Below the pieces are notes generated by a model, which saw only the letters and a list, made by a program, of their open reading frames with translations, did not search any database and had not been told where the DNA came from. DNA of 64,000 nt from Candidatus Woesearchaeota archaeon. Its GTDB lineage: Archaea; Nanobdellota; Nanobdellia; Woesearchaeales; ARS49. Shown piece by piece: positions 15,642 through 56,959 of this stretch (position 1 is the stretch's first letter; each line of letters starts with the position of its first letter). A program made the translations under genes and the position numbers. The stretch spans positions 64,994-128,993 of the forward strand of contig JAWADY010000002.1 of assembly GCA_038891615.1 (NCBI GenBank), read 5' to 3'.

Positions 15642-15645
15642 ATAA

Positions 15646-16071: not shown

Positions 16072-16088
16072 ATTTGGTAAAATGAAAA

Positions 16089-18900: not shown

Positions 18901-18901
18901 A

Positions 18902-35398: not shown

Positions 35399-36628
35399 GT
35401 GCAAATGGCATTATTGATTGAGAGATACGCTCCTCAAAGCCTTGCACAGATACCGCAGCCAGGGATTTCAGTTTTGCGCAACTGTGTAAAAAAACAGCTT
35501 GAAGGCAAGCTCAGTGGCAAGGCAGTTTTTATTTACGGGCCAACCGGTTGTGGAAAAACAACTGCTGTCAAATGTCTTGCAAGAGAGCTTGGACTTGAGC
35601 TTTTTGAACTAAATGCCTCTGATTTCAGGTCTTCAAAAGACCTAGAAGTGACGCTGATGCCAGCAGTTAGTCAATCGAGTCTTTGGGCTGCCAGCCGGTT
35701 GATACTTCTTGATGAGCTTGATGGCCTTGACCCCTCAGAAGATGGAGGCGCGGTTGGCACAATTTTAGCAGCGATAAAGCTTTCAAAACATCCAATTGTG
35801 CTTGTTGCAAACGAGCCGTGGACAGCTCAGCTGGCTCCGCTCCGCGAAAAGGCAATTCTCATCGAGTTTCAAAAAATACCAATTAAAATTATTTTCAACA
35901 CCCTCAAGAACATTTGTCAGAAAGAAGGAACGGCTTATGATATGCAGGCACTTGCATTGCTTGCCCAAAAGTCATCGGGGGATCTTAGGTCAGCACTCGT
36001 GGATCTTGAGCTTTTGTTGCCTAGAGGCGTGGCGCTAAAAGATGTTCAAGAGCTTGCATCAAGAGATGCATCCAAACAAATGAGCGAAGCCCTTTTTACA
36101 ATCTTTAAGCAGACAGACCCAAATGCGGTTGTTGGTGCTTTTGACAAGACAGGCGAGGAACTAACTACTTCAATGCTTTGGCTGGATGAAAATCTTCCTC
36201 GAGAGTACCTTAATCCAGCAGACCTTGCGCGGGCTTATGAAGCCCTAAGCAGAGCAGATGTTCATCTTGGAAGGATAAGACGCTCCCAACATTGGAGGCT
36301 GCTTAACTATGCAGGCATCATGATGACCTCAGGCGTTGCTGTTGCCAAGTCAAGTGTCAATGCTTACGCGAACAGATACACAAAAACAAAAAGGCTTTTC
36401 AGGCATTGGCAACTCAACAGGCAAAATAGTATTGCAAAATCAATAGCCAGCAAGTTTTCTGCTTTAAGCCATCTGTCAACAAGAAGAGCATTTCAGACAT
36501 TGCCTTTTTTGAAAAGGCTGCTTTCTAGTGCTTTTGGGGATGCTGTCGCAAAAGATGTTGGTTTAACAGATGAAGAGGTTGGCTGGCTTTTAGGAAAGGC
36601 AAAGGCAAACGGGCTGTACTTACAGTAG
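35399..36628 (+). CDS. rfcL: Replication factor C large subunit-like AAA+ clamp-loader protein.
   Basis: ERYAPQSLAQI...KAVFIYGPTGCGKTTAVKCLARELGLELFELNASDFRS follows the archaeal RFC large-subunit pattern, including the ELNASD motif. Confidence 0.6.
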   Translation: MQMALLIERYAPQSLAQIPQPGISVLRNCVKKQLEGKLSGKAVFIYGPTGCGKTTAVKCLARELGLELFELNASDFRSSKDLEVTLMPAVSQSSLWAASRLILLDELDGLDPSEDGGAVGTILAAIKLSKHPIVLVANEPWTAQLAPLREKAILIEFQKIPIKIIFNTLKNICQKEGTAYDMQALALLAQKSSGDLRSALVDLELLLPRGVALKDVQELASRDASKQMSEALFTIFKQTDPNAVVGAFDKTGEELTTSMLWLDENLPREYLNPADLARAYEALSRADVHLGRIRRSQHWRLLNYAGIMMTSGVAVAKSSVNAYANRYTKTKRLFRHWQLNRQNSIAKSIASKFSALSHLSTRRAFQTLPFLKRLLSSAFGDAVAKDVGLTDEEVGWLLGKAKANGLYLQ

Positions 36629-36667: not shown

Positions 36668-38152
36668 ATGAAATACGAGGATGTCATCAATCTTGCACTT
36701 AGAAGGGGAATCTTTTTCCTCTCTTCAGAGATTTATGCAAACGCACCAGCAGGCTTTTATGATTATGGTCCTTATGGTGCTGCAATAAAGCGAAAAATCA
36801 TTGAGCTCTGGCGTAAGCAATTCGTTCAGAAAGAAGAGATGCTCGAGATTGATGGTTCTGTGCTAATGCCCGAAGAAGTTTTTATCTCTTCGGGCCATCT
36901 AAGAAGTTTTGCAGACCCTATAACAAAATGCACTAAGTGCAGTTCAACTTTCAGAGCGGATACTCTTTTAGAAGAAGAGGGCAAGCTAAAGCTAAAAGAA
37001 GGGGCAAGCGTTGAAGAGCTGACAGCCGCGCTAAAAAAGCTTGGTCTTCTCTGTAAGAAGTGTAAAGGTCAGTTGTCAGATGTCTTTCGTTCAAGTCTCA
37101 TGGTCAAGGCAGAAGTTGGAATAGCAAAAAAGTCTCCACTTTATCTTCGGCCAGAAACATGTCAAAGCATTTTTTGCGACTGGGCCAGGCTGCTAAAAAC
37201 AATGAGGATTTCACTTCCAAAAGGGATTGCACAAACAGGCAGAGCTTTCAGAAACGAGATTTCACCAAGGCAGACTCTTCTTAGACAGGTAGAATTTTCT
37301 CAGATGGAAGCAGAGATTTTCTTTGACCCAGAAAAGATAAACGAATTTGGACGTTTTGAGGAGCTTGAAAACTACGAGTTGCGTCTCTTACGCATTGGCA
37401 AGAAGACTGTTGAGAATGTCTCTTGTCGAGATGCTGTTAACAAGGGGCTTGTTTCAGGAAAGCTCATAGCATATTTCCTTGCAAGGCTTCAACAGCTGTA
37501 TACAAGCTTTGGCTTGCCACTCCATTCAATGCGCTTTCGTGAGATTGACAAAGATGAAAGACCTTTTTATTCTAAAGAGACTTGGGATTTTGAGGTTGAA
37601 ACTTCTCTTGGGTGGCTCGAGCTCGTTGCGAACAATTACCGAACGGACTACGACCTCAAAGGTCATGCAGCCGGTTCTGGTAAAGATCTCAGCTTTGTTG
37701 ACGAGAAAGGAAGAAAGTTCATTCCGCATATTTGGGAGGTTTCAGCAGGGCTTGACAGAACCTTTTATGCAATACTTGAACACGCGTACAAAAAAGAAGG
37801 CGAAAGGACACTTCTCACTCTAGCTCCAAAGATTGCTCCGCTTCACGCAGCAGTCTTTCCTCTTCTCTCAAACAAGCCAGAGCTAATAACAAAGGCTCAA
37901 ACGGTTTATAGGAAACTTCTTGAAAGCGGCTTTGAGGTTGTTTACGATGAGACAGGAAGCATAGGCAAAAGGTACGCAAGGATGGATGAAATCGGCTGTC
38001 CCGTCTGCATAACGATTGACTTTGAAAGCCTTACAGCAGAAGATGTGACAATTCGCGATCGCGATACTACAAAGCAAAAACGCATAAAGATTGCCAATCT
38101 TCCAAATGCGCTCGCGAGCATTACCTCAGGAACACCATTTGAAAAGATTTAA
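36668..38152 (+). CDS. glyS: Glycyl-tRNA synthetase (archaeal/eukaryotic alpha2 type).
   Basis: RRGIFFLSSEIYANAPAGFYDYGPYGAAIKRKII is a diagnostic GlyRS N-terminus. Class II motifs. Confidence 0.85.
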   Translation: MKYEDVINLALRRGIFFLSSEIYANAPAGFYDYGPYGAAIKRKIIELWRKQFVQKEEMLEIDGSVLMPEEVFISSGHLRSFADPITKCTKCSSTFRADTLLEEEGKLKLKEGASVEELTAALKKLGLLCKKCKGQLSDVFRSSLMVKAEVGIAKKSPLYLRPETCQSIFCDWARLLKTMRISLPKGIAQTGRAFRNEISPRQTLLRQVEFSQMEAEIFFDPEKINEFGRFEELENYELRLLRIGKKTVENVSCRDAVNKGLVSGKLIAYFLARLQQLYTSFGLPLHSMRFREIDKDERPFYSKETWDFEVETSLGWLELVANNYRTDYDLKGHAAGSGKDLSFVDEKGRKFIPHIWEVSAGLDRTFYAILEHAYKKEGERTLLTLAPKIAPLHAAVFPLLSNKPELITKAQTVYRKLLESGFEVVYDETGSIGKRYARMDEIGCPVCITIDFESLTAEDVTIRDRDTTKQKRIKIANLPNALASITSGTPFEKI

Positions 38153-38190: not shown

Positions 38191-38264
38191 GGGGCAGTAA
38201 CTCAGCCCGGGAGAGTGCACGGCTGAAGACCGTGGTGTCGCCGGTTCAAATCCGGCCTGCCCCA
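38191..38264 (+). tRNA. tRNA-Phe (anticodon GAA), no encoded CCA.
   Basis: Cloverleaf with acceptor GGGGCAG/CTGCCCC, D-arm ACTC-AGCCCGGGA-GAGT, anticodon arm CACGG-CTGAAGA-CCGTG, and T-arm GCCGG-TTCAAAT-CCGGC. Confidence 0.85.
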
Positions 38265-40454
38265 TTAGCCAAATCTAAGGGTTGCTGCCATTATTCTTAG
38301 GGCAATAAAGTTGAAAAGCAGAATCACAAATAGTGCAACGATGGTGTAAAGTGCTGTGCTTCTTATAAGATTCCTTCCAAGCACATAACGCTCGCCAAGC
38401 TTGTCAGCGCCGTTTTCTATGCCGTTTGCAAGGATAGTGAGTATTGCAATAATTTCAACAACATAGATGCCAACAACGAGCTGGAAATAATAAGTCGGTA
38501 TACCATCGCCAAGCAAGCTTGCAATTGAACTAAGCTTTTCTCCAACATCAGGAGTCTGGAGCTTTGAGAATTGGTGTGACAATGCGCCAATGATTGTTGT
38601 TATCATTGATGTTATCCCAATAACTATCCCTGCGATGGTGGGTGCAAGGAAGTTTATTTGTGATTTCATGTCTGCAATTATGTCAGCCATAAGGTCCTTT
38701 AGACGCTCATTAACCCTGTGTATCTCTTTTATGTACCTAGAGACATTCATGAGTGCTTGAGCAGCTATCTTTGGACCTTTCTTTATGCTTTCAACAAGCA
38801 CCTTCATTGAACTTTCCACTACTGCGCTCGGGAAGTATGTTAGTGCACCAATCCGTGGATGAAATATTGCGTCTCTCAATCCAAGTCCAAGCTTTCTTAT
38901 GTTCGTGGAGATGACGGCAAAGAAATTTCCTGAAACAGTTTCTCCCATAACCTCCGCAACGTTACCAACTGCCATTTCGGCAGGAATTCCATCACCAAGT
39001 CTATTTCCAAGTTGGAAAAGGGCAGATGCAAACTCTTCTTCAAGCCTTTTTGTTCGTTCTCTTATTTTTATCACATTGCTGCTTCTCATCCTAAAGTATA
39101 TGCCAAACCCTAACCCAAGCGCAAGTGGGAAAAGAAGAGATATGACAGAAGCACCAAGCCCATAAGGTCCGAGCTTTTTACCTACCAACCTTATCGAATC
39201 CCTGTATTCGAGAAGGCAGATAAGTCTTTTACATGTTGTTGTTTCTGTTTCAGCACCAAAACCCATATCAAATTCTGGTGAAAAGGCGTGAATAAGTAGC
39301 GGTGACATTGCGCCGATGAAGAGAACGCCTGCTATAACTACTGCTACAATTGCGGGATTAATTGTAAGTTCTGTTCTTCCAATCTTCAAAATAATGTTTT
39401 TGTACCTTTTCAGCTCTGGATTTATTTCTGAGATGTCGACATCTCCATATCCAGTTGGCCTTGTTGAAAGAATGTTTGTGCCCAGATGATAAACTCCAAG
39501 TGGCAGCAGTATGTTGTACAGAATGGCAACGTGATACCACTTTACTCCTTCGATAAAGCTTACAAGGAGAGGGAGTATAACAAGTCCAAGAACTGGAAGG
39601 ATTATTCCTAACATATGAAGGGTTGTTATTGGGCTCTTAAGATTATGGGCATAGTGCAGCATCTTTTCATAAGTCTCCTCAAGAATAACATCGAGGCTTT
39701 TGTCAAGGAGAGCCAGTCTTGCCTCTTCAGTAGGCTCGTAAAGCGAACCTTCAATAAGATGGAATGCTTCTACAAACTCTCTGTTCCAGTTTTTCCAGCC
39801 TTCAAGATAAACATCAAGGCTTTCCTTTACTGTATCATAAATTCCTGATTCTACATTCCACAAGACTTTCTTAAGGTCTAGAGAAAGAGGAGGCGCAAGG
39901 TGTTCTGAAGCAAATTGCAATGCAAGCTCGAGGTTCGAGGTATGCCGCATGTAGGTAACAACATAGAAAATGCATAGCACCATCTGATTTGATGCACGCA
40001 TTCTCCAGGTATTCGCAATTGTATATGGAAGATTTCCGAGAAGTGGAAAAAGCAGTATGCCAACAATAGTGCTCAGCATCGCGAAGAAGAACGAACCAAG
40101 AAGTATTGATATTAAAATTCCAAAAAGCATAACTGCAAGCGGTGCAACCGTTGAAAAGGCAACAGCCTCTTCAGGCCTTATTTCAAGGTGTGCAGTCTCG
40201 ATAGCCTCTTTTAGCTTCTCAAGCCTTTCTGTTTTGAGCCTAAGTCTTATCAGCTTTCCAGAGAACCTGCAGAGCTTTTCATAAAATGTCAGAGGTCTGG
40301 GAAACATTTCCTCCTTAAATTCCCTATACTCTCTTGTGATTATCCTTCTTGGAATTTGAGGAGGGCTCTGACCTAACTCCTGCTCAAGTCTTTCTTTGTA
40401 TTTTTGAACGAGAGACTTAACTTCTTCTTTTGCTCCTGGAGAGAGGTTGTTCAC
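38265..40454 (-). CDS. Polytopic membrane protein of the FlaJ/TadC/PilC (T2SS-F) family, a type IV pilus/archaellum assembly platform.
   Basis: 729 aa with about 8-9 TM helices. Lies immediately downstream of, and is co-directional with, the FlaI/PilB-like ATPase gene. Confidence 0.55.
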   Translation of the reverse strand: MNNLSPGAKEEVKSLVQKYKERLEQELGQSPPQIPRRIITREYREFKEEMFPRPLTFYEKLCRFSGKLIRLRLKTERLEKLKEAIETAHLEIRPEEAVAFSTVAPLAVMLFGILISILLGSFFFAMLSTIVGILLFPLLGNLPYTIANTWRMRASNQMVLCIFYVVTYMRHTSNLELALQFASEHLAPPLSLDLKKVLWNVESGIYDTVKESLDVYLEGWKNWNREFVEAFHLIEGSLYEPTEEARLALLDKSLDVILEETYEKMLHYAHNLKSPITTLHMLGIILPVLGLVILPLLVSFIEGVKWYHVAILYNILLPLGVYHLGTNILSTRPTGYGDVDISEINPELKRYKNIILKIGRTELTINPAIVAVVIAGVLFIGAMSPLLIHAFSPEFDMGFGAETETTTCKRLICLLEYRDSIRLVGKKLGPYGLGASVISLLFPLALGLGFGIYFRMRSSNVIKIRERTKRLEEEFASALFQLGNRLGDGIPAEMAVGNVAEVMGETVSGNFFAVISTNIRKLGLGLRDAIFHPRIGALTYFPSAVVESSMKVLVESIKKGPKIAAQALMNVSRYIKEIHRVNERLKDLMADIIADMKSQINFLAPTIAGIVIGITSMITTIIGALSHQFSKLQTPDVGEKLSSIASLLGDGIPTYYFQLVVGIYVVEIIAILTILANGIENGADKLGERYVLGRNLIRSTALYTIVALFVILLFNFIALRIMAATLRFG

Positions 40455-40482
40455 TAGTCCACCTCTTTTTGCAATTTAGCCC

Positions 40483-42780
40483 TTATCCAATCGCGAATTC
40501 CTTTTTAATACTCCTCTTGAGCCACTCATTCCATTCGAAAAATATTCTTTCTGTATCAAGCCTTCCAACTTCCTCAAGTATCTTATCCGAGATGTTGTGG
40601 AAGGCATCATTTGCAGTTATAACAAACTTTGCCTCAAGAATGTCTGGTCTTTTGAGAGCTCTGGCTGTCTCAACCAGCGTTTCTTTGATTCTTGCTCTTA
40701 AGTTTATGTTCTCCCACACTGCATCCCAGTTGCCAGCCCATTCTTTTACATTTGAAGCAATTGCCTTTAGCACATCGCTGTCGCCAGCAAGAAGGTCTTG
40801 TGTTGGCTGCAGCGTGTCTGTGCGCACATCGTATCTCATCAAATCAACGAAACCTTTCTCTGCAAGAGGGTCTTCTTCCCAAAACTTTCTTACTTCTGTG
40901 ATTTGGGTTATCCTTCTCCACCTATGCAGGCCATCTGGACTTCTTATCGGATTTGCCACAACAATGAGATCTGTCGCCTTAAAGGATGTTCTTGGAACAC
41001 CAAGGTCATTAACAACTCTATCAAAGACACCGTACGGGCTGTCGCCGTGAATCGTTCCAGCAACGACATTTGCGAGGGCACCAACTCTCATTGCTTCGTA
41101 GAGCGCGCGAGCCTCAACAGACCTTACTTCTCCTATGATAAGGCTGCTGTCTCCCAGCCTAAGTGTTGTACGCAAGCCTTCTTCTGCAGGCACTTCTGTT
41201 GTTCCACGGGTCAATGCGCTGGCTACCTTCATAGATTGAATGTTGTAGCCAAGCTCGCGCAGAGAGCTAACTGGTAACTCAAGTGTATCTTCTATGGTCA
41301 ATACTCTTATCCTGCGCATTATCTCTGTCATAAGCGATGCCAGAAAAGATGTTTTTCCTGCAGATCTTGTACCTGCGATTAGCATTGTTCGCGCGCCATC
41401 GATGCAAAAGCTCAGAATGCCTGCGCCAAGAGGGCTAATCATTCTGTTTTCTATGAAAAGTGGAAGAGTCCATGGCTTGTCGCGATGCCTCCTGAAGCTA
41501 TACGCAATACCTGTTGGGTTCAATGGAGCTGTTATTGCCGCAATCCTTGCACGCGCTCTTGGTATAATAAGTTCTGTATCAAGAATTGGATTTGCCTCAT
41601 CAAAAGGCCTATTCGAGAGAAGTCTCAGCTTTGAGGCCCAGCTTTCAGCCTCGCTTGCTGTTGGCACAATGTTTGTCATGCAGTCAGCATAATCAGCCTG
41701 TACAACAAATATTGGAATCCTGCCCATGGGACTGTTAACCGAGATATCCTGTATTTTTTCATCCTGAAGAAGAACTTCAACAAGTCCAAAGCCAACTGTG
41801 TACCTCACTAGGATGTTTGCAAGCTCCTGCAGTTCTTTTTCTCGAAGTTTCAGGCCGCGATACTCCGCAAGTTCCTCAAGAAGGTCAGAACCAATCCGCT
41901 CAAAAACCTGCCTCATACGCTCCGGGTCTACGAACTCTGAGCGTTTTGGCTTGTGTTCTACGATAATATTTCTCGCAGAATCAAGGAGCTCATACTTCTC
42001 CTCACTAAGCTTGAATTCTGGAGGAATAATATGATAAAGGTATTGTACCGTGTTCGGTAGGGAAAAGATGTTGACTTCTGTTCCATTTACAATGTAGCTC
42101 TCAAGCAGCTCTGCATCCGGCGGAAAGCTTGACATTAGTTTGGTAAACATAAAGTCTGGCTTTATTGTCGGCGAAAATATTCTTCTATAAATGTCCCTCT
42201 CGCCAACCTTGTATCCTGCTAATTGCTCTTTTGCAAGCTTGATGAGTGTTGTTTGTTGGAGTAAGCCAAGTGCGTCCTCCACTGCCTTAAGATAGCGCTG
42301 CAGGCACCTCTGGCCTTCGGGAGAGGCATGCTTAAGATATTCTCTTTCTCGTCTTGCAATGCGCTCCAGCTCAACATAAGCTCCCACAGGATCGCTTTTT
42401 AGCATTGTATGTAGGATTGACTGCAGCTCTGTGTATCTCCTTGTTAACCATTTCAAGCACGTCATATCAGATAAGAAGCCATACGCCAATCTTCTGCGTA
42501 GCAGCTCCTTGTACGCAATTGCTATCTCATTAAGTATTGCTGTTTGAGTGCCATCATATTCATAATCGCGCTTTTGCACAAAAACAATTCTTGTAACTGT
42601 GCCAACCTCTGCAAGAATGTCAATTGTCATTGACATTGTTTTTGGAGAATCTTCAATTGAGGGAAAAAATGTGCAGGCCTCTGCATCTATTCTAAGAATT
42701 ATCTCCTCACCTTCTCTTATAATCTCGTAGCTGAAACAACCTCTATCAGGCATGTGAAGTCCTCCCACCTCTTTGAGCAA
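40483..42780 (-). CDS. Type II/IV secretion-system ATPase of the FlaI/PilB/GspE/VirB11 family, 765 aa with an N-terminal extension.
   Basis: Walker A LIAGTRSAGKTSFLASL. Asp-box VLTIEDTLELP. His-box region. C-terminal hexameric ATPase domain. Confidence 0.8.
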   Translation of the reverse strand: MLKEVGGLHMPDRGCFSYEIIREGEEIILRIDAEACTFFPSIEDSPKTMSMTIDILAEVGTVTRIVFVQKRDYEYDGTQTAILNEIAIAYKELLRRRLAYGFLSDMTCLKWLTRRYTELQSILHTMLKSDPVGAYVELERIARREREYLKHASPEGQRCLQRYLKAVEDALGLLQQTTLIKLAKEQLAGYKVGERDIYRRIFSPTIKPDFMFTKLMSSFPPDAELLESYIVNGTEVNIFSLPNTVQYLYHIIPPEFKLSEEKYELLDSARNIIVEHKPKRSEFVDPERMRQVFERIGSDLLEELAEYRGLKLREKELQELANILVRYTVGFGLVEVLLQDEKIQDISVNSPMGRIPIFVVQADYADCMTNIVPTASEAESWASKLRLLSNRPFDEANPILDTELIIPRARARIAAITAPLNPTGIAYSFRRHRDKPWTLPLFIENRMISPLGAGILSFCIDGARTMLIAGTRSAGKTSFLASLMTEIMRRIRVLTIEDTLELPVSSLRELGYNIQSMKVASALTRGTTEVPAEEGLRTTLRLGDSSLIIGEVRSVEARALYEAMRVGALANVVAGTIHGDSPYGVFDRVVNDLGVPRTSFKATDLIVVANPIRSPDGLHRWRRITQITEVRKFWEEDPLAEKGFVDLMRYDVRTDTLQPTQDLLAGDSDVLKAIASNVKEWAGNWDAVWENINLRARIKETLVETARALKRPDILEAKFVITANDAFHNISDKILEEVGRLDTERIFFEWNEWLKRSIKKEFAIG

Positions 42781-42867: not shown

Positions 42868-43368
42868 ATGCCTGAAGAACTGCTGCCGCCGATAGGAACT
42901 AATATCGCGCCTGAACCCGCAAGCCAAGCTACAGAGCCATCCCAACAGCCAAAGCGCCTTTTCAAGTCAAAAATGCCAGAAACGACAGAGCTTTCATCGC
43001 TGCGTGAGGAACTTCTATCACTCAGCACCCGTCTAAGAGTGTCCGAAGAGCGCTATGTTGACTTTCGAAGAAAGCTTCAACTTCTAGAGCAAAACCTTCT
43101 TTCAAACCACAAACGGGTAATGGAAGAAATAAAGCTCCTGCTCTCAGAAACAACAGAGCTAAAAAAGAAGATTGATGAGATTGAAAACAAACTCCTTCTT
43201 ATTGTAAAGGAATTACAACTCACAGCAAAAAGAGAAGATGTGGAAGTAATGAAAAAGTATTTTGAACTTTGGAGCCCAGTTAGTTTTGCAACAATTTCTC
43301 AGGTTGAGAAAATGATTGCAGAAGCGCTACAGGAACGGCAAGGAGATGCCGAAGAAGAAAAGACATGA
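42868..43368 (+). CDS. Coiled-coil protein of 166 aa, divergently oriented from the pilus ATPase gene.
   Basis: Heptad-rich helical sequence (LSLSTRLRVSEERYVDFRRKLQLLEQNLL...). Confidence 0.4.
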   Translation: MPEELLPPIGTNIAPEPASQATEPSQQPKRLFKSKMPETTELSSLREELLSLSTRLRVSEERYVDFRRKLQLLEQNLLSNHKRVMEEIKLLLSETTELKKKIDEIENKLLLIVKELQLTAKREDVEVMKKYFELWSPVSFATISQVEKMIAEALQERQGDAEEEKT

Positions 43369-43470: not shown

Positions 43471-44184
43471 ATGCCTTTGTTCGGCCTTTTTGGTAAAAAA
43501 AAGGAAACCCCTCCTTCGCCTTTTGAAGGGCTTAAGCAAGAGCTTGCACCTCCCCTTGTTCAACGAGTCATTTCGCTTCAGCAACAAGGCCTTTCAAACA
43601 GCCAAATCATCGAGGCTCTCCAAAGAGAGGGCTTTGCTCTTGACAAAATTGTGGAAGCATTGAATCAAGCCGCTGCACCTCCGCCTGCTGGGCCCATTCC
43701 TACGGAGATGCCACAAGCCCCTCCACCAACTCCACCGTCAGAGCTTCCTCAAGCTCCTCAACCAGTGCCTGCACCGCCTGCAATGTATCCTGCTGAATAT
43801 CCTGAATATACCTATCCAGCTTACCCAGCCTATCCTGCTGAAGAAATACTTTCCCGAGAGAATGTTGAGGCAATTGCTGAGTCGATAGTTGAGGAGCGTT
43901 GGAAGGAGGCTACAAAAGAGCTTACAAAGTTGAGTGAATGGAAGGAAGCTTCAACAAGAAGACTTGACAAGCTTGAGCAGTCTCTTACGGACCTTAAAGC
44001 TGACATTGATAACCTTCACAAAGCACTCGTTGCAAAAATAAGCGAATACGACAAGAGTCTCATTGATGTTGGCGTAGAACTTAAGGCGATGGAAAAGGTT
44101 TTTCAGAAAGTGCTTCCAAGCCTAACAGAATCTGTTTCAGAACTATCACGAATTACGCAGCGGGTAAAAAAGGCAAAGAAGTAA
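43471..44184 (+). CDS. Protein of 237 aa with an N-terminal small helical domain, a Pro/Tyr-rich linker (YPAEYPEYTYPAYPAYPAEE) and a C-terminal coiled coil. It is possibly a paralogue of the preceding gene.
   Basis: The C-terminal heptad pattern is similar to the upstream ORF. Low-complexity PAPP linker. Confidence 0.4.
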   Translation: MPLFGLFGKKKETPPSPFEGLKQELAPPLVQRVISLQQQGLSNSQIIEALQREGFALDKIVEALNQAAAPPPAGPIPTEMPQAPPPTPPSELPQAPQPVPAPPAMYPAEYPEYTYPAYPAYPAEEILSRENVEAIAESIVEERWKEATKELTKLSEWKEASTRRLDKLEQSLTDLKADIDNLHKALVAKISEYDKSLIDVGVELKAMEKVFQKVLPSLTESVSELSRITQRVKKAKK

Positions 44185-44312: not shown

Positions 44313-45506
44313 ATGCTAATTGGTCTTGTTGGTAAGCCTTCTGCTGGCAAAAGCACTTTCTTTAAGGCACTAACTCTCGCGGAAGTTGCCATTGCACCGT
44401 ATCCTTTCACCACGATAAAACCAAATGAGGGCGTTGGTTTTGTTCGAGTTGATTGTGTTGAAAAGGAATTTGGGGTTGCCTGCAATCCTCGCGAGGGTTA
44501 TTGTAGCAATGGCATTCGTTTTGTTCCAATCAAATTGATGGATGTTGCCGGGCTTGTGCCAGGCGCGCATCTTGGGAAAGGACTTGGGCTTCAATTTCTT
44601 GACGACCTTAGGCAGGCAGAATGCCTTATACATATTGTTGATGCTTCTGGAAGCACGAATGAAAAAGGCGAGGTTGTTGCTCCAGGGAGCTACGACCCTT
44701 CATATGACATAAAATTTCTTGAGCATGAGCTTGACATGTGGTTTCTTGAAATCATAAAGCGTGGTTGGGAAAAGGTTGCCAAGCTATCTCAACAGACAAA
44801 AAAAGAAGTTTCTACAATTCTTGCAAGACAACTCTCTGGTTTGAATGTGAGTGAAGAGCTTGTCAGGGAACTTATATCAAAACTTGGTCTAGACCCTCTT
44901 TCTCCCATGTCCTGGAGCGAAGAAGTTCTTCACAGCCTTGCTATTGATCTTCGTAAAAGGACAAAACCCCTACTCATCGCAGCAAACAAGGCAGACATTC
45001 CTGAATCTGAAAAGAATATAAAGAGGATGGTTGAGCTCTTTCCAGATAAGGAAGTGGTTCCATGCTCTGCAGAAGCAGAGCTCGCGCTCAAAGAAGCAGC
45101 AAAGGCAGGTTTAATAAAATACTTGCCAGGCAGCAGTGATTTTGAAGTTGTTGGAAAGCTTAACGATAAACAGGCCGCTGCACTTGAATTTATTAGACAG
45201 AATGTGCTTAAAAAGTACGGAAGTACGGGTGTACAACAAACTCTTGATGATGCTGTATTCAAACTTCTTGGTTACATTGCAGTATTTCCTGGTGGTGTAA
45301 ACAAACTTGCAGACCAATTTGGGCGTGTTCTTCCGGATTGTTTTCTCATGCCAAAAAACAGCACAGCACTTGACTTTGCATTCAGAATTCATACAGATCT
45401 TGGAAAGGCGTTTGTAAGAGCAGTTGATGTGCGCTCGAAAAAAACAATTGGTAAAGACTATTTGCTAAAGCACAGGGATGTCATTGAGATTGTTGCAAAG
45501 GCATAG
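44313..45506 (+). CDS. Obg-like GTPase/ATPase of the YchF/Ygr210 family with a C-terminal TGS domain.
   Basis: G1 LVGKPSAGKSTFFKALT. YPFTTIKPNEGV. NKAD-like AANKAD. TGS-like C-terminus. Confidence 0.7.
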   Translation: MLIGLVGKPSAGKSTFFKALTLAEVAIAPYPFTTIKPNEGVGFVRVDCVEKEFGVACNPREGYCSNGIRFVPIKLMDVAGLVPGAHLGKGLGLQFLDDLRQAECLIHIVDASGSTNEKGEVVAPGSYDPSYDIKFLEHELDMWFLEIIKRGWEKVAKLSQQTKKEVSTILARQLSGLNVSEELVRELISKLGLDPLSPMSWSEEVLHSLAIDLRKRTKPLLIAANKADIPESEKNIKRMVELFPDKEVVPCSAEAELALKEAAKAGLIKYLPGSSDFEVVGKLNDKQAAALEFIRQNVLKKYGSTGVQQTLDDAVFKLLGYIAVFPGGVNKLADQFGRVLPDCFLMPKNSTALDFAFRIHTDLGKAFVRAVDVRSKKTIGKDYLLKHRDVIEIVAKA

Positions 45507-45550
45507 TTGCAAAACTTTCAGCCCCTTCAAAACGCATTTGTCAGACCCAT

Positions 45551-46705
45551 CTAAACTTTGAAAAGCCTTTCATGCAGCTTGCTAAAAGCTTTTAATCGCT
45601 CAAGAAATCGGTGCCATGCGCGCCTAGGAATACGCGCTCCCGCTGCCGGGATGTGGCCTCCAGCTGCTGCTTGAGCAATCCCTCGCACAGCCCGGTCAAG
45701 GAGTGCATTAACCTTTACTTTTTTGTCACTCCTTCTTCCGCTGACATCCCACCAGCCATCAGCACGCCGATAAACGATGAGCGTACGGTGAGGGTGCCTA
45801 AAGGCTGCTATTGTGCTAAGCGTAGAAGAGATTTTGAGTGGTGAACTTGCATCATAAAAAACTATTTCTCCAGGAGGAGTATTTCTCACAGCAATGTCAA
45901 ACCTTTTTAAGTGGCCCTTCAACTCATCATTCATTTTCTTTGTAATGAGTTTGAATGCGTTTATAATCTCCAAAGGGCTCTTTGCATCATAGACAACCTT
46001 CCAACATTTTTTTACACCATCTTTGCTGTACTTTATTGCTGATTGGATTGCATTGGCCGCCTTTCCAAAAGCACTCCTCCACACATCCTTTCCAATCCTA
46101 AGTCTTTTTTTGGCCGCAGCCTTTTGAACAAAGCCCTTCCAACAATTATAACCTGCATCCGCAACAATTCCTATTGCTGCAATCCAATCAAACGAAGAAA
46201 TGTCAGCAACGGTCATTCCAAAATCGTATGCAAGTTTTGAGCTGCAATAGCTCGCAGCCTCTTTTGTTGAGAAAAGCTGCGGTTTTATCAAAAGACCATT
46301 TTTAATTGTTTTTGAGTACAAAGGGTGATGGTCAAGGATAAGAAGCCTTGCAAAACTTGAGATGCTTTTTACGATATTCTTTAGTTGATCAAGCGCAAGG
46401 TCTGTTGTTATAACCATGCTAATCCTTGCTCTTTTTAGTTTTGAAATTGTTGCTTTGTTTGGTCTTCGTTCAGGTTCTGAAATAACAAGTTCTGGTGACC
46501 TTCCCCTCACCGCTTCAATGAGTTTCGAAATGATTACTGCAGAGCACAGCCCATCAGGGTCTGCATCATGAATTATTGCAACCCTTCTTCCTCGTGTTGA
46601 AGCAAGGAATCTTACAAAGCTACTCTCCAGCCTTTCACGAACCTTTTCAAGCGATTTATGCTTTCTTGTCATATCCTCTCTTGCGTTTGAACGCAAATAT
46701 GCCAA
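45551..46705 (-). CDS. DHH/DHHA1 family phosphoesterase (NrnA/RecJ-like nuclease).
   Basis: IIHDADPDGLCSA (DHH motif I), ILDHHP (DHH), GGGH-like AAGGHIPAAG (DHHA1). Confidence 0.7.
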   Translation of the reverse strand: MAYLRSNAREDMTRKHKSLEKVRERLESSFVRFLASTRGRRVAIIHDADPDGLCSAVIISKLIEAVRGRSPELVISEPERRPNKATISKLKRARISMVITTDLALDQLKNIVKSISSFARLLILDHHPLYSKTIKNGLLIKPQLFSTKEAASYCSSKLAYDFGMTVADISSFDWIAAIGIVADAGYNCWKGFVQKAAAKKRLRIGKDVWRSAFGKAANAIQSAIKYSKDGVKKCWKVVYDAKSPLEIINAFKLITKKMNDELKGHLKRFDIAVRNTPPGEIVFYDASSPLKISSTLSTIAAFRHPHRTLIVYRRADGWWDVSGRRSDKKVKVNALLDRAVRGIAQAAAGGHIPAAGARIPRRAWHRFLERLKAFSKLHERLFKV

Positions 46706-46736
46706 AATGACAGCTTGTCAACTCTTGGCAGTGCTT

Positions 46737-47123
46737 TCAAGAATCACTGCCTTTTTTTCTCATACGCTCAAAAGTCGCAGCGATATCAATTATGTACTTC
46801 CCATCAGCAACTTTAAATATCAATGGCTCATTTTTAAAAAGCCTTACGAGGTCTAGTTCGTACTTTCCTGGCTTCAGAACATTAATGCTCTCCAAGTCAA
46901 GCACAACTGGTTTTTCTGGCTCTTCAAGTCCTATAATTTTGAAGATGTCAGATTCGATTTCTTTCTTTTCCTTTTCTGAAAGAGGGCTCGCTGGCCCTTC
47001 TGGTTGCTTCAGCTTTTCTTTCTTTATGAAAAAGAAAAGCTTCCCACCACAGGAACAACCCTTTAGTATCGCAGAAGAGCCATCATCGTAGAACGTATTG
47101 CACCGTACGCATTGGTGTGGCAT
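46737..47123 (-). CDS. Zn-ribbon-containing small protein.
   Basis: N-terminal CVRCN...CSCGGK. Same strand as, and tightly linked to, the next two genes. Confidence 0.35.
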   Translation of the reverse strand: MPHQCVRCNTFYDDGSSAILKGCSCGGKLFFFIKKEKLKQPEGPASPLSEKEKKEIESDIFKIIGLEEPEKPVVLDLESINVLKPGKYELDLVRLFKNEPLIFKVADGKYIIDIAATFERMRKKGSDS

Positions 47124-47126
47124 TTG

Positions 47127-47507
47127 CTATCTTTTTTTCCTCTTTTCTTGTGTAAAAAGTTCAATTTTGTGAGGGTCTTTCTTTATCTTCTTGACTATGC
47201 TGGCTGGCCCGATTATGGTCATTCCCTGCCTGTTTCCCAAAAGAAAGCTAAGGACGTTTTCGCGGAATTTCTTAATTCCTGAGAAGTTGCCTTGTTGAGG
47301 ATTTATAACTGCAAGCTCTATCCCTTTGAAATCCTTATTTATCTCTTCCATTGTTGCTTTTATAAGTTCAGCCTCTTCGTCCTTCGATAATCTCCCCTGA
47401 AAAAGAACTATCTTGTCTTCTTTTGCGACATTTAACAACTTTCTTATTCTTCCAACAGAGCTAAGCTGTTCAAGCTCACTATATGGAATGAATTGCAGGG
47501 TCACCAT
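47127..47507 (-). CDS. Conserved hypothetical protein in an operon with a small GTPase (resembles the DUF2073-type partner in archaeal Zn-ribbon/GTPase gene triplets).
   Basis: Its start codon is 2 nt from the GTPase stop. No catalytic motif. Confidence 0.3.
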   Translation of the reverse strand: MVTLQFIPYSELEQLSSVGRIRKLLNVAKEDKIVLFQGRLSKDEEAELIKATMEEINKDFKGIELAVINPQQGNFSGIKKFRENVLSFLLGNRQGMTIIGPASIVKKIKKDPHKIELFTQEKRKKR

Positions 47508-47508
47508 C

Positions 47509-48147
47509 TTATTTTCTCAGAAGCTCGTATAATTTTTCATAAAACTCGTTAATGTTCTTGCCATATTTTGCAGATATGCCAATAACATCGTATTGAGGAA
47601 AGGCTGTCTGAACCCTTTTCAGCTTGGCACGCTTGAGGTCTATCTTGTTTGCAGCGATTAGCACAGGTATTTTTCGAGCAGCAAGGTTCCCAACTATTGT
47701 TATGTTAACTTGTGAATAAGGGTCCTGAGTTGCATCTAATACGAGTACAACCCCGTCAACATCATCCAGCCACTTTATTGCTTCTATCACTCCTTTTGTT
47801 GCTTCGCGCGCCCTGCGCTTCGCTTTTGATTCAGGCAGCCCACTTTTGATGAAATCCTCATAATCTATTCTTGTTGCAATCCCTGGCGTATCAACAAGAC
47901 TAAATTGCAGTTCCTTGCCCTTCTTTAGTTTTATTACAATTCGCTCTTTTACATTGACCTCTCTTGTTTCGTGCGGAACTGGACTGACCTTTCCCATTTC
48001 TTTGCCAATCCAGTCCAAGCATATCTTGTTCGCAAGAGTTGTTTTCCCTGAATTTGGAGGACCATAAAGGCCAAGTTTAAGGGACTGTCTTCTTTTGAAA
48101 AGCTCGCCAAAAAGACCTCCGAAAACGCTCTTCAACAGCTTTAACAT
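47509..48147 (-). CDS. Small Ras-like GTP-binding protein.
   Basis: G1 GPPNSGKTT, G3 VDTPGI, G4 ANKID. Length 212 aa. Confidence 0.7.
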   Translation of the reverse strand: MLKLLKSVFGGLFGELFKRRQSLKLGLYGPPNSGKTTLANKICLDWIGKEMGKVSPVPHETREVNVKERIVIKLKKGKELQFSLVDTPGIATRIDYEDFIKSGLPESKAKRRAREATKGVIEAIKWLDDVDGVVLVLDATQDPYSQVNITIVGNLAARKIPVLIAANKIDLKRAKLKRVQTAFPQYDVIGISAKYGKNINEFYEKLYELLRK

Positions 48148-48243
48148 CTCTGCACCGCTTTTGCAATAAACAAAATAGGTTTTTATTTAAAACTTTCTAA
48201 AGAGAAAAATAAAAACTCAAGGCAAGAGAAGAAGTCAAATGCT

Positions 48244-48477
48244 TTAGCGACCCCGCGCCATCTTTGCCCTTGAGATATCTCCCTTTTTGTCAATGAAATA
48301 AAGATAACCTGGCTCTTTTTTGACTCCAACTTTCGCGACAAGCTCAGGCTTTCCTCCACGCCCCTTCCTGCCCCGTGCCATCTTGACCCTACTGACATTT
48401 CCCTTTTTGTCAACAAAATAAAGATATCCTTCTGCTTTTTTGACACCAACTTTTGCAACCTTTTCAGCCATTTTCAA
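48244..48477 (-). CDS. Small basic protein of 77 aa composed of two tandem 35-aa repeats.
   Basis: VAKVGVKKAEGYLYFVDKKGNVSRVKMARGRKGRGGKPEL is followed by VAKVGVKKEPGYLYFIDKKGDISRAKMARGR. The underlying DNA is a tandem repeat of about 105 nt, and the alternative-frame ORF 48183-48458 is its shadow. Confidence 0.45.
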   Translation of the reverse strand: MKMAEKVAKVGVKKAEGYLYFVDKKGNVSRVKMARGRKGRGGKPELVAKVGVKKEPGYLYFIDKKGDISRAKMARGR

Positions 48478-48562
48478 CCCCCTTTAATTTTCTTTTCAAA
48501 TCGACGATAAAAGCGTCTTTGAAGCAAGAAACAGTTCTAGTTTATAAAGTTTGCGTCTTTCT

Positions 48563-48787
48563 TCATCCCTTACTTTTGCGTGCTTTCATTCGTGGTTTTA
48601 GGTGGGCTATTTTGTGCCTCTCTTTTCCAAGGTACCATACAGGTCTCAAAAGCTTCTGAAGTTTTGCAGCAGTTTCGAGAGATTCTGTATACTCTCTAAA
48701 TATTTTCTTTCTACTATGTGGTATAAGTGGTTCTATCTTTTTTGCTTCTGCAAGTGCCAACTCAACGATAGACCTCTTTTTTGCCAT
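48563..48787 (-). CDS. Small basic protein of 74 aa, possibly a nucleic-acid-binding or ribosomal-like protein.
   Basis: Lys/Arg-rich (MAKKRSIVELALAEAKK...KPRMKARKSKG). Intact ORF with a T-rich upstream region. Confidence 0.3.
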   Translation of the reverse strand: MAKKRSIVELALAEAKKIEPLIPHSRKKIFREYTESLETAAKLQKLLRPVWYLGKERHKIAHLKPRMKARKSKG

Positions 48788-48866
48788 TTCCTCAAATCTT
48801 AGCCTTGTATCTTTTGTATAAAAATGCTTCGGCGAAAGGCATTTATATCCTCCAGCCGTTCTTGAG

Positions 48867-50066
48867 GTGGGGAAAATGAAATTTGCACATCTTGCAGACT
48901 GTCATATCGGTGGATGGCGTGAGCCTGTTCTCCGTGAACTGAACAACAGAGCATTTTCAGAAGCTGTTGCGCGATGCCTTGCAGAAAAGGTCGACTTTGT
49001 ACTCATAGCAGGAGACCTTTTTAACACCTCACTGCCTGCACTTGATAGTCTTAGGAGCGCTGTTGCTGGCCTTCGCGAACTGAAGGAAGCTGGAATTCCA
49101 GTTTATGCAGTTCCTGGTAGCCATGACTATAGCCCAAGTGGCAGGACGATTGTTGATGTGCTTGAGAGTGCAGGGTTGCTTGTCAATGTTGTAAACGAAG
49201 AAGCAAATTTTGTCGTAGATAAAAAGACTGGAGCAAAGCTCATAGGACTTCCTGGTTGGAAGGGTGGGCTTGACCAATCACTCTTCTCTTCAATTGACAA
49301 AAGTGCACTTGAGGCTGAAAAAGGTTTCAAGATCTTCCTATTCCACACGACGGTGAAGGAGCTGATAACAAAAGATTTTGAAATGATTCCATCTGTGCCA
49401 GCTTCAGCTTTTCCAGAAGGGTTTGACTATTATGCAGGTGGTCACATTCACATTGTCAGCAGGCACAGGTTTGGGAAGGGGTTTATGGTCTATCCAGGGC
49501 CGCTCTTTCCGAACAACTTTTCAGAGCTTGAGAAGCTGGGAGCGGGAGGATTTTTCGTATATGAAGATGGCAAGCTTGAGCATGTAAGACTCGAGCTCTG
49601 TCCTGTTCGGCCTTTAGTCTTGGATTGCAATCACAAACGGCCAGCTGAGATTTGCCAGGAGATTGCACACAGGATAGACCAGCTTGAGCTTAAAGGGGCC
49701 TTGCTGCTTGTCAGGCTTTATGGAAGCCTGGCTGGGAAATCTACAGAGATTCCTTTTAACGAGTTGTTTGCACGCGCATACGAGAAGGGTGCACTCTTTG
49801 TTCTCAAGAATTCTCATCAGCTCATAAACGAAGAACTTGCAAAGACCGAAACTGTTTCGGGAACTGTTGAGGAAATAGAACAGAGTGTGATTGAAAGCTT
49901 TTCAGGAAAAGGCCCTTTTACAAAGGAAAAAGAACGCCAGCTTCTTGCCGCCATTATGCAGGTGCTTTCTGCTGAAAAAGCCGAGGGTGAAACTACTGTT
50001 GATTTTGAGACAAGACTGAAAAAAGCCGTTGCAGGGGTCTTAGGCATAACACAGGAGGCACACTAA
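48867..50066 (+). CDS. mre11: Mre11/SbcD-like calcineurin-fold DNA repair nuclease.
   Basis: Metallophosphoesterase motifs HLADCHIG, GDLFN, GSHDY, GGHIH. No rad50 gene is adjacent. Confidence 0.6.
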   Translation: MGKMKFAHLADCHIGGWREPVLRELNNRAFSEAVARCLAEKVDFVLIAGDLFNTSLPALDSLRSAVAGLRELKEAGIPVYAVPGSHDYSPSGRTIVDVLESAGLLVNVVNEEANFVVDKKTGAKLIGLPGWKGGLDQSLFSSIDKSALEAEKGFKIFLFHTTVKELITKDFEMIPSVPASAFPEGFDYYAGGHIHIVSRHRFGKGFMVYPGPLFPNNFSELEKLGAGGFFVYEDGKLEHVRLELCPVRPLVLDCNHKRPAEICQEIAHRIDQLELKGALLLVRLYGSLAGKSTEIPFNELFARAYEKGALFVLKNSHQLINEELAKTETVSGTVEEIEQSVIESFSGKGPFTKEKERQLLAAIMQVLSAEKAEGETTVDFETRLKKAVAGVLGITQEAH

Positions 50067-50074
50067 GAAAATTT

Positions 50075-51385
50075 CTATGGGCTTTTTCTAAGCATTGTTC
50101 GTGGAAAGGGTATTGCATCTTTTATGTTGTCAAGTCCACAAATCCACGATATGACGCGCTCGATGCCCATCCCAAATCCAGAATGTGGAACAGAGCCATA
50201 GCGTCTTGTGTCAAAATACCATTCGTAATGTTCTGGATGTTCGCCGCTCTTTTTTAGCGCTTCTTTCATTGCATTGATGTCAAGGTCTCGTTGCGAGCCT
50301 CCAATTATCTCGCCGTACCCTTCAGGCGCGAGCATGTCAAAACAGAGTGCCGTCTTAGGATCTCTTGGGTCTGCTGGCTTATAAAATGCCATTATCTCCT
50401 TTGGATAGTTCGTTACGATGAGAGGCCTGTCAAAATGCTTCATTATTTTGTTCTCTTCAATTGTCCTCAAGTCCTTGCCCCACTGCACTACCAATCCTTC
50501 TTTTTTCTTCAAAAGCTCAAGGACTTGTGTATATGTAAGCCTAGGAAAAGGTGTTTTTACCTTTTTGAGCTTCGACAGTTCTTGCCCAAGCTGTGTTAGT
50601 TCTGAGCTGTTTTCCTTTAACACAGCCTTTACAACGTGCTCAACGAGCTCTTCGGCTTGTTTAATAGCTCCGTCCAAGTCCTGCCACGCTGTTTCGACCT
50701 CTGCCATCCAGAACTCTGCAAGGTGTCTCGAGGTTTTGCTCCGTTCTGCTCTAAAGCATGGACTAATTGTGAATATCTTTTCAAGTCCAAAAATTCCTGC
50801 CTCTGCATAAAGCTGCCAACTTTGAGTAAGGTATGCAATGTCGTCAAAGTATTTTAGCTGGAAAAGGGTTGCTCCCCCTTCGCAAGCAACTGGGGTTATT
50901 ATAGGTGGAGACCATTCGTAGTAGCCTCGCTCATAGAAATAATCTCGTACCGCCTTGAGGATGGTTGAGCGAATCTTAAGGATGTTTGTTAGCTTTCTAC
51001 TTCTTAACCAAAGATGCCTCACATCGAGGAGAAACTCCTGACTAAGATCCTTTGCTATTGGGAATCTCTCTGCAATATGAACAATTTTCAGGTCTGAAAC
51101 TTTTAGCTCGTATCCTGTTGGAGCCCTTTCATCTTTTACAAGCTCGCCCTCAACAATAAGCGAGCTTTCCATTGTTACCTTTTCCGCATTACTGAATAAC
51201 TCCTTTGGCACATTTTCTTTCTTGACAACACATTGTATGATGTTGGAGCTATCTCTTAAAACAATAAACACTTTGTCCGCAAACTTCCTTTCGCGATAGC
51301 ACCAGCCTCTAAGCCTAACCTTTCCTTTACCTTTTTCAAGTGCTTCTTGTATCGAAATAATGCCGTCTTTTTCAGCTACTGCCAT
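50075..51385 (-). CDS. asnS: Asparaginyl-tRNA synthetase (class IIb).
   Basis: SPCFRAERSKTSRHLAEFWMAEVETAW, GGSQRD, YGSVPHSGFGMGIERV are AsnRS-type motif 2/3 variants. Length 436 aa. Confidence 0.75.
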   Translation of the reverse strand: MAVAEKDGIISIQEALEKGKGKVRLRGWCYRERKFADKVFIVLRDSSNIIQCVVKKENVPKELFSNAEKVTMESSLIVEGELVKDERAPTGYELKVSDLKIVHIAERFPIAKDLSQEFLLDVRHLWLRSRKLTNILKIRSTILKAVRDYFYERGYYEWSPPIITPVACEGGATLFQLKYFDDIAYLTQSWQLYAEAGIFGLEKIFTISPCFRAERSKTSRHLAEFWMAEVETAWQDLDGAIKQAEELVEHVVKAVLKENSSELTQLGQELSKLKKVKTPFPRLTYTQVLELLKKKEGLVVQWGKDLRTIEENKIMKHFDRPLIVTNYPKEIMAFYKPADPRDPKTALCFDMLAPEGYGEIIGGSQRDLDINAMKEALKKSGEHPEHYEWYFDTRRYGSVPHSGFGMGIERVISWICGLDNIKDAIPFPRTMLRKSP

Positions 51386-51431
51386 TTTTCCTTTAAATTA
51401 AAGAACTCTTTTAAAGTTTTCCAGTCGTTCG

Positions 51432-52739: not shown

Positions 52740-53374
52740 TTTTTCCGTCCTCTGCTTCTGCCTTTGAGCCTGAGCTTCAATGCAAGGTCTTCAAGTTTTT
52801 CCAGCCCATATTTCAGGCTATCAAACTTTTTTCTTAAAGGTTGGTTTCTAAAATCAAATAGGGTCAGTTGTTCATGAATCCCTTCAACAAATGCCTTTAT
52901 CTCAAGCGCAGACCTTTCATTGCCTTTTATCACAGAATTTATGGCTTTTCGCACAAGCTCGCCCACCATATCACAAAGTCCTAGAAGATATATATCTATG
53001 TCAACGCCAAGTTCTTTGGGAGAGAAAAGTCGCTTCTCACTCGCCCAGCCATAGTAGCAGGAAGCCTCAACATACTCTTCCAGAGCCTCTGCATAAGCAC
53101 CAATCATTGCAAGATGTTTGTCACCCTTTACAAGGCTTTCTGCCTCTTTTATTCTGCTTTTTGCAACCCTTAGTGCAGCTGCTGCCGAAGCGAGGTCTTC
53201 TCTATGAAGTGCATAAATTGCCTTTTTGCTTTCCTTTAGAATATCTCTTGATTTCTTTATAAGCTCTTCGCGGGCATAATCAAAAGCCTCTAGCTTCTGC
53301 CTCATGAGCTCAAAAGTCTTTTTGTCAATCATTACTGTAGTTTGTGAGCGCAGCCCTTTTAAATCTATTGCCAC
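52736..53374 (-). CDS. Translin-family protein (all-alpha nucleic-acid-binding/RNase-like).
   Basis: AYAEALEEYVEA and DIYLLGLCDMVGELVRKA resemble the conserved translin/TRAX EE and YL-GL-D--GEL-R blocks. Overlaps the aspS start by 4 nt. Confidence 0.5.
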   Translation of the reverse strand: MAIDLKGLRSQTTVMIDKKTFELMRQKLEAFDYAREELIKKSRDILKESKKAIYALHREDLASAAAALRVAKSRIKEAESLVKGDKHLAMIGAYAEALEEYVEASCYYGWASEKRLFSPKELGVDIDIYLLGLCDMVGELVRKAINSVIKGNERSALEIKAFVEGIHEQLTLFDFRNQPLRKKFDSLKYGLEKLEDLALKLRLKGRSRGRKK

Positions 53375-54579: not shown

Positions 54580-54594
54580 AAGAGCTAGTGAAAT

Positions 54595-56875: not shown

Positions 56876-56959
56876 GCCTCCGTAGCTCAGTAGTGGAGCG
56901 ACTGCCTTGTATCTGTGCAAGAAAGCAGTAGGTCAGGGGTGCGAATCCCCTCGGAGGCT
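56876..56959 (+). tRNA. tRNA-Thr (anticodon TGT) with a 12-nt intron at the canonical 37/38 position.
   Basis: Acceptor GCCTCCG/CGGAGGC, D-arm GCTC-AGTAGTG-GAGC, and anticodon stem ACTGC/GCAGT enclosing 19 nt (loop CTTGTA + intron tctgtgcaagaa + A). Intron CAAG pairs with exon CTTG to give a bulge-helix-bulge-like structure. T-arm AGGGG-TGCGAAT-CCCCT. Confidence 0.7.

Follow-up and report, generated by a model that had tools for sequence, protein, structure and literature searches.

Little is known of how DPANN archaea make and use the contact with the host cells to which they are attached. The question raised here concerns two adjacent genes of a Candidatus Woesearchaeota archaeon, a tiny symbiont represented by a metagenome-assembled genome (MAG): which machine do they drive, and which proteins does that machine handle? 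The genes lie in a 64-kb stretch of contig JAWADY010000002.1 (assembly GCA_038891615.1; hereafter the window), which we analyzed together with 10 kb on either side, 84 kb in all. One encodes a T2SSE-family assembly ATPase and the other a polytopic platform protein of the T2SSF (FlaJ/TadC/PilC-like) family, and an island of genes for pilin-like proteins and adhesins lies at a distance in the same window. With good confidence we read the two genes as encoding the core motor of a type IV filament (TFF) machine of DPANN type, that is, a pilus machine. An earlier note on this DNA, made from the sequence alone, had favored a pilus or secretion machine over a motility machine, and this is supported by an ATPase that clusters with neither FlaI nor VirB11/TrbB and scores far below the corresponding equivalog cutoffs; the two open reading frames (ORFs) are also where that note had placed them, at 40483-42780 (765 aa) and 38265-40454 (729 aa), both on the reverse strand.

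An ATPase and a divergent platform protein

The open frame of the ATPase reaches back to a TTG at 42780; the ATG at 42753 (M10) is the likely start, giving 756 aa, because the Shine-Dalgarno-like motif GAGGTGG precedes it and the 756-aa form is that of a database protein (P0121). The Pfam T2SSE model (PF00437) matches aa 373-609 (47.3 bits; gathering cutoff 24.9), and the Walker A motif (GTRSAGKT, aa 470-477), Asp box (IEDTLE, aa 496-501), Walker B motif (LIIGEVR, aa 547-553), and His box (TIHG, aa 576-579; all in 765-aa numbering) occupy columns that are invariant among the orthologs. The protein is predicted to form a hexamer. Of the claim that both proteins are larger than typical archaellum FlaI and FlaJ, and that the ATPase has an extra N-terminal domain of about 270 aa, the size difference stands (about 230 aa for the ATPase and 150 aa for the platform), as does the extension itself, but its length was overestimated: measured against the NCBIfam FlaI model, the N terminus has about 195 additional aa (aa 245 corresponds to model position 50), and the C terminus is longer by about 35 aa as well. 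The first ~245 aa have no sequence match in the PDB, and in a PDB profile search the first ~290 positions of a profile built from 32 orthologs matched no solved structure. The N-terminal region is nevertheless kept throughout the family, including a 51%-identical homolog in a distant DPANN genome (L093), and more than 4,000 orthologs align at ~70% identity with the N terminus included. Subsystem-specific N-terminal ATPase domains are an established theme (PMC4858521; 10.64898/2026.04.22.720090).

The ATPase matches several NCBIfam models, all below their cutoffs: the TadA family (TIGR03819) with 110.5 bits (cutoff 373), FlaI (NF058587) with 107.5 bits (equivalog cutoff 550), and VirB11 and TrbB with 61.6 and 60.7 bits (cutoffs 250 and 305). 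Solved structures were ranked by the 32-ortholog profile in the order 2OAP (3.6e-30), CpaF (3.6e-24), FlaI (6e-16), and VirB11 (2e-8), and in all rankings VirB11 is the class with the weakest match. The best of these, Archaeoglobus fulgidus GspE2 (2OAP), is covered over its N2-like and RecA-like domains; it shares 26% core identity with the window ATPase, groups with FlaI, and does not have the N-terminal extension. CpaF of the bacterial Tad/Flp systems, the second-best structure, represents a family with 26-30% core identity that forms a separate clade. We constructed a small, distance-based neighbor-joining tree from 319 core columns, in which the deeper order stays unresolved. Nine Woesearchaeota ATPases and the ATPase of the Haloterrigena turkmenica plasmid pHTUR04 form one clade with 100% bootstrap support, and FlaI/2OAP, CpaF, and VirB11/TrbB lie across a split from this clade that is supported at 64%. 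The other clades comprise FlaI/2OAP together with a paralog from a Nanoarchaeia MAG (L079; 97%), CpaF (100%), and VirB11/TrbB (58%). In a phylogeny of the kind suggested in the earlier note the ATPase thus joins the plasmid ATPase of a haloarchaeon and stays outside the FlaI, CpaF, and VirB11/TrbB groups, and on sequence grounds membership in either the FlaI or the VirB11 group is excluded.

The Haloterrigena ATPase is by far the best plasmid match (36% identity over aa 189-598, E 8e-70), and the genes HTUR_RS24145/HTUR_RS24140 are the closest sequence relatives of the pair outside DPANN. They share the order of ATPase then platform, and their platform is likewise invisible to Pfam. Their products are shorter (648 and 604 aa), the N-terminal region of their ATPase does not align with that of the window ATPase, their platform has no central insert, and their neighbors are DUF7311 and DUF7382 rather than the accessory candidates described below. 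Makarova et al. (2016) remarked of the ATPase of halobacterial clade 4 that it is "also found in nanoarchaea," and the pHTUR04 pair appears to be a system of this kind.

The platform gene starts with GTG, preceded by the same GAGGTGG motif as the ATPase gene. Its product, which is 100% identical to a Candidatus Woesearchaeota MAG protein at NCBI, has 8-9 predicted transmembrane (TM) segments, with extra helices over ~95 aa at the N terminus and, near the middle (about aa 354-430), a beta-rich insert. In the AF2 model (pLDDT 81.9) two cytoplasmic helical bundles are placed between long TM helices, and, like those of FlaJ and PilC, the two halves of the protein are homologous (aa ~124-272 versus ~441-603; hhalign probability 78.7%, E 1.7e-5). 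We collected 59 diverse relatives, each with an E value below 1e-90 to the family profile, of which 34 match the T2SSF model PF00482 (best 3.2e-10); no other family comes close. When aligned with single TadB and TadC sequences by hhalign, the second of the T2SSF-like domains is covered (aa 453-617) with weak P values of 0.002-0.006, and HofC is also weak; in Tad/Flp systems the platform consists of two proteins, TadB and TadC, whereas here it is one fused, two-repeat protein. A BLASTP comparison with the product of the gene beside the Haloterrigena ATPase gave an E value of 1e-28 over ~600 aa. The combined matches support a divergent FlaJ/TadC-type platform that would be a T2SSF homolog by transitivity through its relatives. 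The family is isolated in sequence, because an exhaustive profile search yielded only 1254 representative clusters.

Conservation and linkage of the pair in relatives

The two genes are separated by 28 nt on the same strand with a Shine-Dalgarno-like site at each, and are presumably co-transcribed. Platform relatives are encoded in at least 558 species-level genomes, from which 80 loci were fetched, and the ATPase precedes the platform in every fetched locus with the flank present. Both genes have more than 4,000 homologs at ~60-70% identity, which rules out chance ORFs. In the 23 genomes that have every marker, the ATPase averages 66% identity to its window counterpart, the platform 59%, and the membrane protein TM5a 55%, compared with 45% for glycyl-tRNA synthetase (GlyRS), 40% for replication factor C (RFC), and 37% for valyl-tRNA synthetase (ValRS). 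The pair (38265-42753) therefore stands 14-29 percentage points above its neighbors GlyRS, RFC, and ValRS (36668-38152, 35399-36628). Four ATPase orthologs (P0157, P0173, P0209, and P0239) additionally contain an intein of ~500 aa, with LAGLIDADG and intein splicing domains, inserted into the Asp box at a point equivalent to aa 497-500 of the window ATPase. Identity above that of aminoacyl-tRNA synthetases together with the Asp-box intein argues that the constraint is unusually strong for a pilus motor. Intein-bearing ATPase genes longer than 3.7 kb are found at loci L059, L089, and others.

Five further genes are associated with the pair: the coiled-coil genes cc166 and cc237, divergent from the ATPase gene, and three tandem paralogs encoding 5-TM membrane proteins of ~185-190 aa (TM5a, TM5b, and TM5c) that in this genome are displaced ~10.7 kb from the ATPase. 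No Pfam or NCBIfam model matches cc166, and the TM5 paralogs have neither a Pfam family nor a fold match. Among 44 Woesearchaeota loci with at least 4.5 kb of upstream sequence, cc166 lies directly upstream of the ATPase in 30, and cc237 and the TM5 paralogs are each found there in 27, in the fixed order TM5a, b, (b'), c, cc237, cc166, ATPase, platform. The remaining 14 loci comprise 11 with a bare pair in unrelated surroundings and three with cc166 only. Because housekeeping flanks are likewise common to Woesearchaeota loci, this linkage could be mere synteny within the lineage; distant genomes argue otherwise. A TM5 homolog lies 1.2 kb from the platform in an Aenigmatarchaeota genome (L092; hidden Markov model [HMM] E 7.7e-10), and HMM searches of L093 identified cc166 immediately before the ATPase region (E 7.6e-10), cc237 (E 5.9e-17), and TM5 (E 6.6e-14). 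Co-location in these genomes supports accessory status, and the coiled-coil proteins are probably accessory (cc166 alternatively regulatory) subunits, and the TM5 proteins membrane accessory components, of the pilus machine. TM5 and coiled-coil HMMs found no match at the Haloterrigena locus, and cc166, considered as a relative of its DUF7311 protein, has no similarity to it. We found no description of this module in the literature, the supplementary data of the cited papers being outside the scope of that search.

The same distant genomes connect the motor to pilins. Members of the platform family are encoded inside class III-type pilin/adhesin islands in three of them (L092, L093, and L094), which ties the motor family to class III pilins. 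In L092 the platform gene stands amid "MKG"-type pilin genes and a gene for a 1020-aa adhesin, and in L094 it lies within a pilin island. L093 carries, all on one strand, three TM5 genes, homologs of both coiled-coil genes, the ATPase, a CARDB adhesin, a SpoIIM-like protein, and the platform, together with about eight pilin-like genes and a gene for a VWA protein. The SpoIIM-family (PF01944) polytopic protein of L093 (9271-9996) is encoded between the adhesin and the platform; no homolog of it was found in the window.

From these comparisons we infer how the pair may extract pilins, which pilins it uses, what the accessory genes do, and which function it serves. By homology, a hexameric T2SSE ATPase would dock on the two cytoplasmic helical domains of the platform, and ATP hydrolysis would drive the platform to lift processed pilins from the membrane and add them to an elongating filament. 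Its most likely substrates would be the ~18 class III signal peptide proteins and the giant adhesin whose genes lie 18 kb upstream, and the machine would likely serve for attachment to a host cell, or for exchange with it, rather than for swimming.

The pilin island and the surroundings of the pair

Features of the window are collected in table 1. We searched for class III-like N termini, defined as a short positively charged leader ending in G or A and followed by ~20 hydrophobic residues, and found 14 strict and four relaxed matches (18 ORFs) in 1-19870; outside the island only two ORFs in the window match, which is chance level. Three small Cys-rich proteins are candidate major pilins; longer, spurious ORFs run across their genes on the other strand (12565-12843 and 12895-13353), so that a longest-ORF reading misses them. 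Further pilin genes lie upstream of the window (L003), and the island thus extends beyond it. From its end at 19870 to the platform stop at 38265 the distance is 18.4 kb, in agreement with the 18 kb given before. Sixteen pilin-like genes served by the pair had been proposed; the island is real and the count is 18, and comparison with L092, L093, and L094 suggests that the pair may indeed serve them.

Table 1. Features of the window, with strand and the grounds on which each was assigned
Feature	Position	Strand	Basis or remark
Pilin/adhesin island, first part	1-8854	+	N-terminal motifs, adhesin domains
Class III-like ORF beginning before the window	ends 881	+	N-terminal motif
TSP3/Ig-like adhesin, 1826 aa	875-6355	+	Adhesin domains
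Four pilin-like genes	6352-8854	+	N-terminal motifs
Pilin island, second part	12544-19870	+	Three small Cys-rich pilins and ten further genes; K/R-G/A then hydrophobic N terminus
Three Cys-rich pilins, 84-91 aa	12544-12798, 12810-13079, 13091-13366	+	Candidate major pilins
tRNA-Phe	38191-38264	+	Abuts platform stop
T2SSF-family (FlaJ/TadC/PilC-like) polytopic platform, 729 aa	38265-40454	-	PF00482 matches of relatives, internal repeats, Haloterrigena BLASTP, AF2 model
T2SSE-family assembly ATPase	40483-42753	-	Pfam, motifs, Shine-Dalgarno-like site, PDB profile ranking, neighbor-joining tree, orthologs
cc166, coiled-coil cytoplasmic protein	42868-43368	+	Divergent from ATPase; locus adjacency, L093 homolog
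cc237, small N-terminal helical domain, Pro-rich linker, C-terminal coiled coil	43471-44184	+	Locus adjacency, L093 homolog
TM5a, 5-TM membrane protein	53452-54003	+	Tandem paralog
TM5b, 5-TM membrane protein	54004-54579	+	Tandem paralog
TM5c, 5-TM membrane protein	54595-55158	+	Tandem paralog

The two parts of the island are split by genes at 8857-12393 for a 656-aa Ser/Thr kinase of the eukaryotic type, a PhoU/AbrB-domain protein, and an AsnC/Lrp regulator. Arn kinases regulate surface structures of Sulfolobus, and by analogy these genes may regulate the pilus genes.

The genes within 10 kb of the pair encode ValRS, RFC, GlyRS, tRNA-Phe, an Obg-like GTPase, a DHH phosphoesterase, OapA/B/C, an Mre11-like protein, and two Asp/Asn-tRNA synthetases; the non-housekeeping genes in this range are the two coiled-coil ORFs and unknowns. 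A RecA-like ORF at 24389-25162 was considered as FlaH and rejected, since it is RadB (Rad51 family). Relative to the common Woesearchaeota gene order, the segment at 44313-53374 seems rearranged: the block from Asp/Asn-tRNA synthetase through translin to the TM5 genes appears inverted, and ~6 kb (Obg-like GTPase through Mre11-like) are inserted between cc237 and this block. Directly after TM5c follow three tandem ORFs for soluble proteins of 203, 166, and 179 aa (55168-56806, forward strand) that are mutual paralogs (BLASTP E 1e-5 to 1e-8), match no Pfam or NCBIfam model, and have a single homolog among 82 related loci (L043). The origin-associated proteins OapC, OapB, and a small GTPase (OapA-like) are encoded at 46737-48147 (reverse strand), which suggests that a replication origin is near, possibly in the gene-poor stretch at ~48.2-48.9 kb. 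A tRNA of 84 nt at 56876-56959 (forward strand) scores 57.7 bits with Rfam and is absent from the ARAGORN output; because the thymidylate kinase ORF (56915-57712) overlaps it, the start of that gene is probably further downstream.

Competing readings and the biology of the machine

That the pair drives a pilus has to be weighed against several observations that speak against it. The window platform itself has no match in Pfam, NCBIfam, or the PDB, either as a single sequence or as a profile, and a Foldseek search of its model against the PDB returned nothing significant; the match of highest probability was the PilC model 3jc8_Ca (probability 0.89, E 0.05, not significant). In 81 of the 82 Woesearchaeota loci, fewer than three genes for pilin-like proteins are found at up to 10 kb from the pair (median 0 per locus), so there is no direct pilin linkage in this lineage. 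No Peptidase_A24 is annotated by precomputed Pfam among the called genes of the 10 kb on either side. In addition, a second and more canonical TFF locus lies 4 kb from the conserved pair in L079 (12876-20014) and encodes an 827-aa FlaI/2OAP-like ATPase, a KaiC-like protein, pilins with a "QYSMEF" N terminus, and a split platform of 275 and 349 aa, on the longer of which we scanned for and found a T2SSF match; a second system elsewhere in the genome studied here could therefore serve its island. DPANN systems described in a recent preprint have two platform genes (10.64898/2026.04.22.720090) and in this resemble the second locus of L079, not the fused 729-aa platform.

These points bear most directly on an alternative in which the pair is a TFF motor for other substrates, through bindosome-like display, secretion, or DNA uptake, and a second TFF system assembles the island pilins. 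L079 illustrates that a further TFF locus, with pilins of its own, can occur in Woesearchaeota, the pair is without neighboring pilins in almost all of their loci, conservation above that of aminoacyl-tRNA synthetases would suit a housekeeping-like uptake role, and the bindosome provides a precedent (2026 preprint 10.64898/2026.04.22.720090). We nevertheless consider this reading unlikely, as distant members of the platform family are embedded in pilin/adhesin islands and the 84 kb revealed no second ATPase. Separate loci for ATPase/TadC and for pilins are, moreover, common in archaea (PMC4858521; 10.64898/2026.04.22.720090). A motility motor of the archaellum type (FlaI/FlaJ, also ArlI/ArlJ) shares a homologous ATPase core and a two-repeat platform with the pair, the NCBIfam FlaI model does match the ATPase, and some JGI annotations call the orthologs FlaI. 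The match is far below the 550-bit cutoff, however, the ATPase lies outside the FlaI/2OAP clade, and its large N-terminal extension contrasts with archaellum ATPases, which are the most simply organized of the archaeal TFF ATPases (10.64898/2026.04.22.720090). The neighborhood consists of housekeeping genes and unknowns, no archaellin or FlaC-H gene is present in the window or 10 kb to either side, in line with what had been claimed from the sequence for the vicinity of the pair, and we regard an archaellum as very improbable. Scarcely credible is a VirB11/TrbB-type ATPase of a conjugation or type IV secretion system, to which the model matches of ~61 bits and the generic JGI label "VirB11/archaellum biosynthesis ATPase" would point. 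Instead of a VirB11 placement with a relaxase or coupling protein nearby, which the earlier note had considered, we find a separate clade, VirB11 as the weakest class throughout, and, within 10 kb of the pair, neither VirB4 nor a coupling protein or relaxase; VirB11 systems also lack a T2SSF platform such as the partner here, which favors a pilus over conjugation.

A pilus machine needs a prepilin peptidase, and the results fit one encoded outside the 84 kb. No polytopic ORF of the window matches the Pfam Peptidase_A24 model, which, with the annotation of the flanks, bears out the remark that no such enzyme is visible. Polytopic ORFs of the 82 Woesearchaeota loci form 30 clusters, of which ten representative ORFs were scanned, again with no A24 match, and, because no A24 enzyme lies near any of 85 loci examined, the pilins may be processed without a canonical A24 peptidase. 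Two nanoarchaea with a secretion ATPase and no detectable A24 peptidase were reported by Makarova et al. (2016; PMC4858521), and the literature, searched for earlier descriptions of such a peptidase or system in Woesearchaeota, offered general statements only. The TM5 paralogs (53452-55158) were considered as divergent A24 peptidases and rejected; they have no conserved Asp pair, GxGD motif, or Pfam A24 match. Only D20 is invariant in TM5a, and it is missing in some TM5c proteins and in the Aenigmatarchaeota homolog. Foldseek with the TM5a model (pLDDT 80.5) gave a best E value of 2.6, with presenilin 4hyg at 3.6 (probability 0.08) and FlaK unlisted.

The motor of a pilus machine proposed here is built like those of archaeal adhesive pili (Aap, Ups, Epd, and Haloferax PilB/PilC), with the same combination of T2SSE ATPase, T2SSF platform, and class III pilins. 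It differs from them in belonging to another ATPase/platform subfamily with its own N-terminal domain, in its DPANN-specific candidate accessory genes, and in a much stronger sequence conservation. Published work takes sets of FlaI, FlaJ, and pilins in DPANN lineages, explicitly those of Woesearchaeota as well, to form pili for interaction with a host (PMC6642349). As a tentative and more far-reaching proposal, the pair may be a DPANN-specific filament core with an undescribed module of three to four TM5 and two coiled-coil proteins, held under stronger selection than aminoacyl-tRNA synthetases as an essential organelle of host contact or uptake rather than an optional adhesin, its pilins perhaps processed without an A24 peptidase.

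The kind of machine is already known; what appears new is its unusually strong conservation and a set of apparently undescribed helper genes, with cc166, cc237, and TM5a/b/c now defined as five candidate accessory proteins. As the platform escapes Pfam, NCBIfam, and the PDB, automated surveys that need a recognizable platform beside pilins probably under-count the system. A pilus-type motor among the slowest-evolving proteins of Woesearchaeota, carrying in some orthologs an intein in its Asp box, points to a near-essential function.

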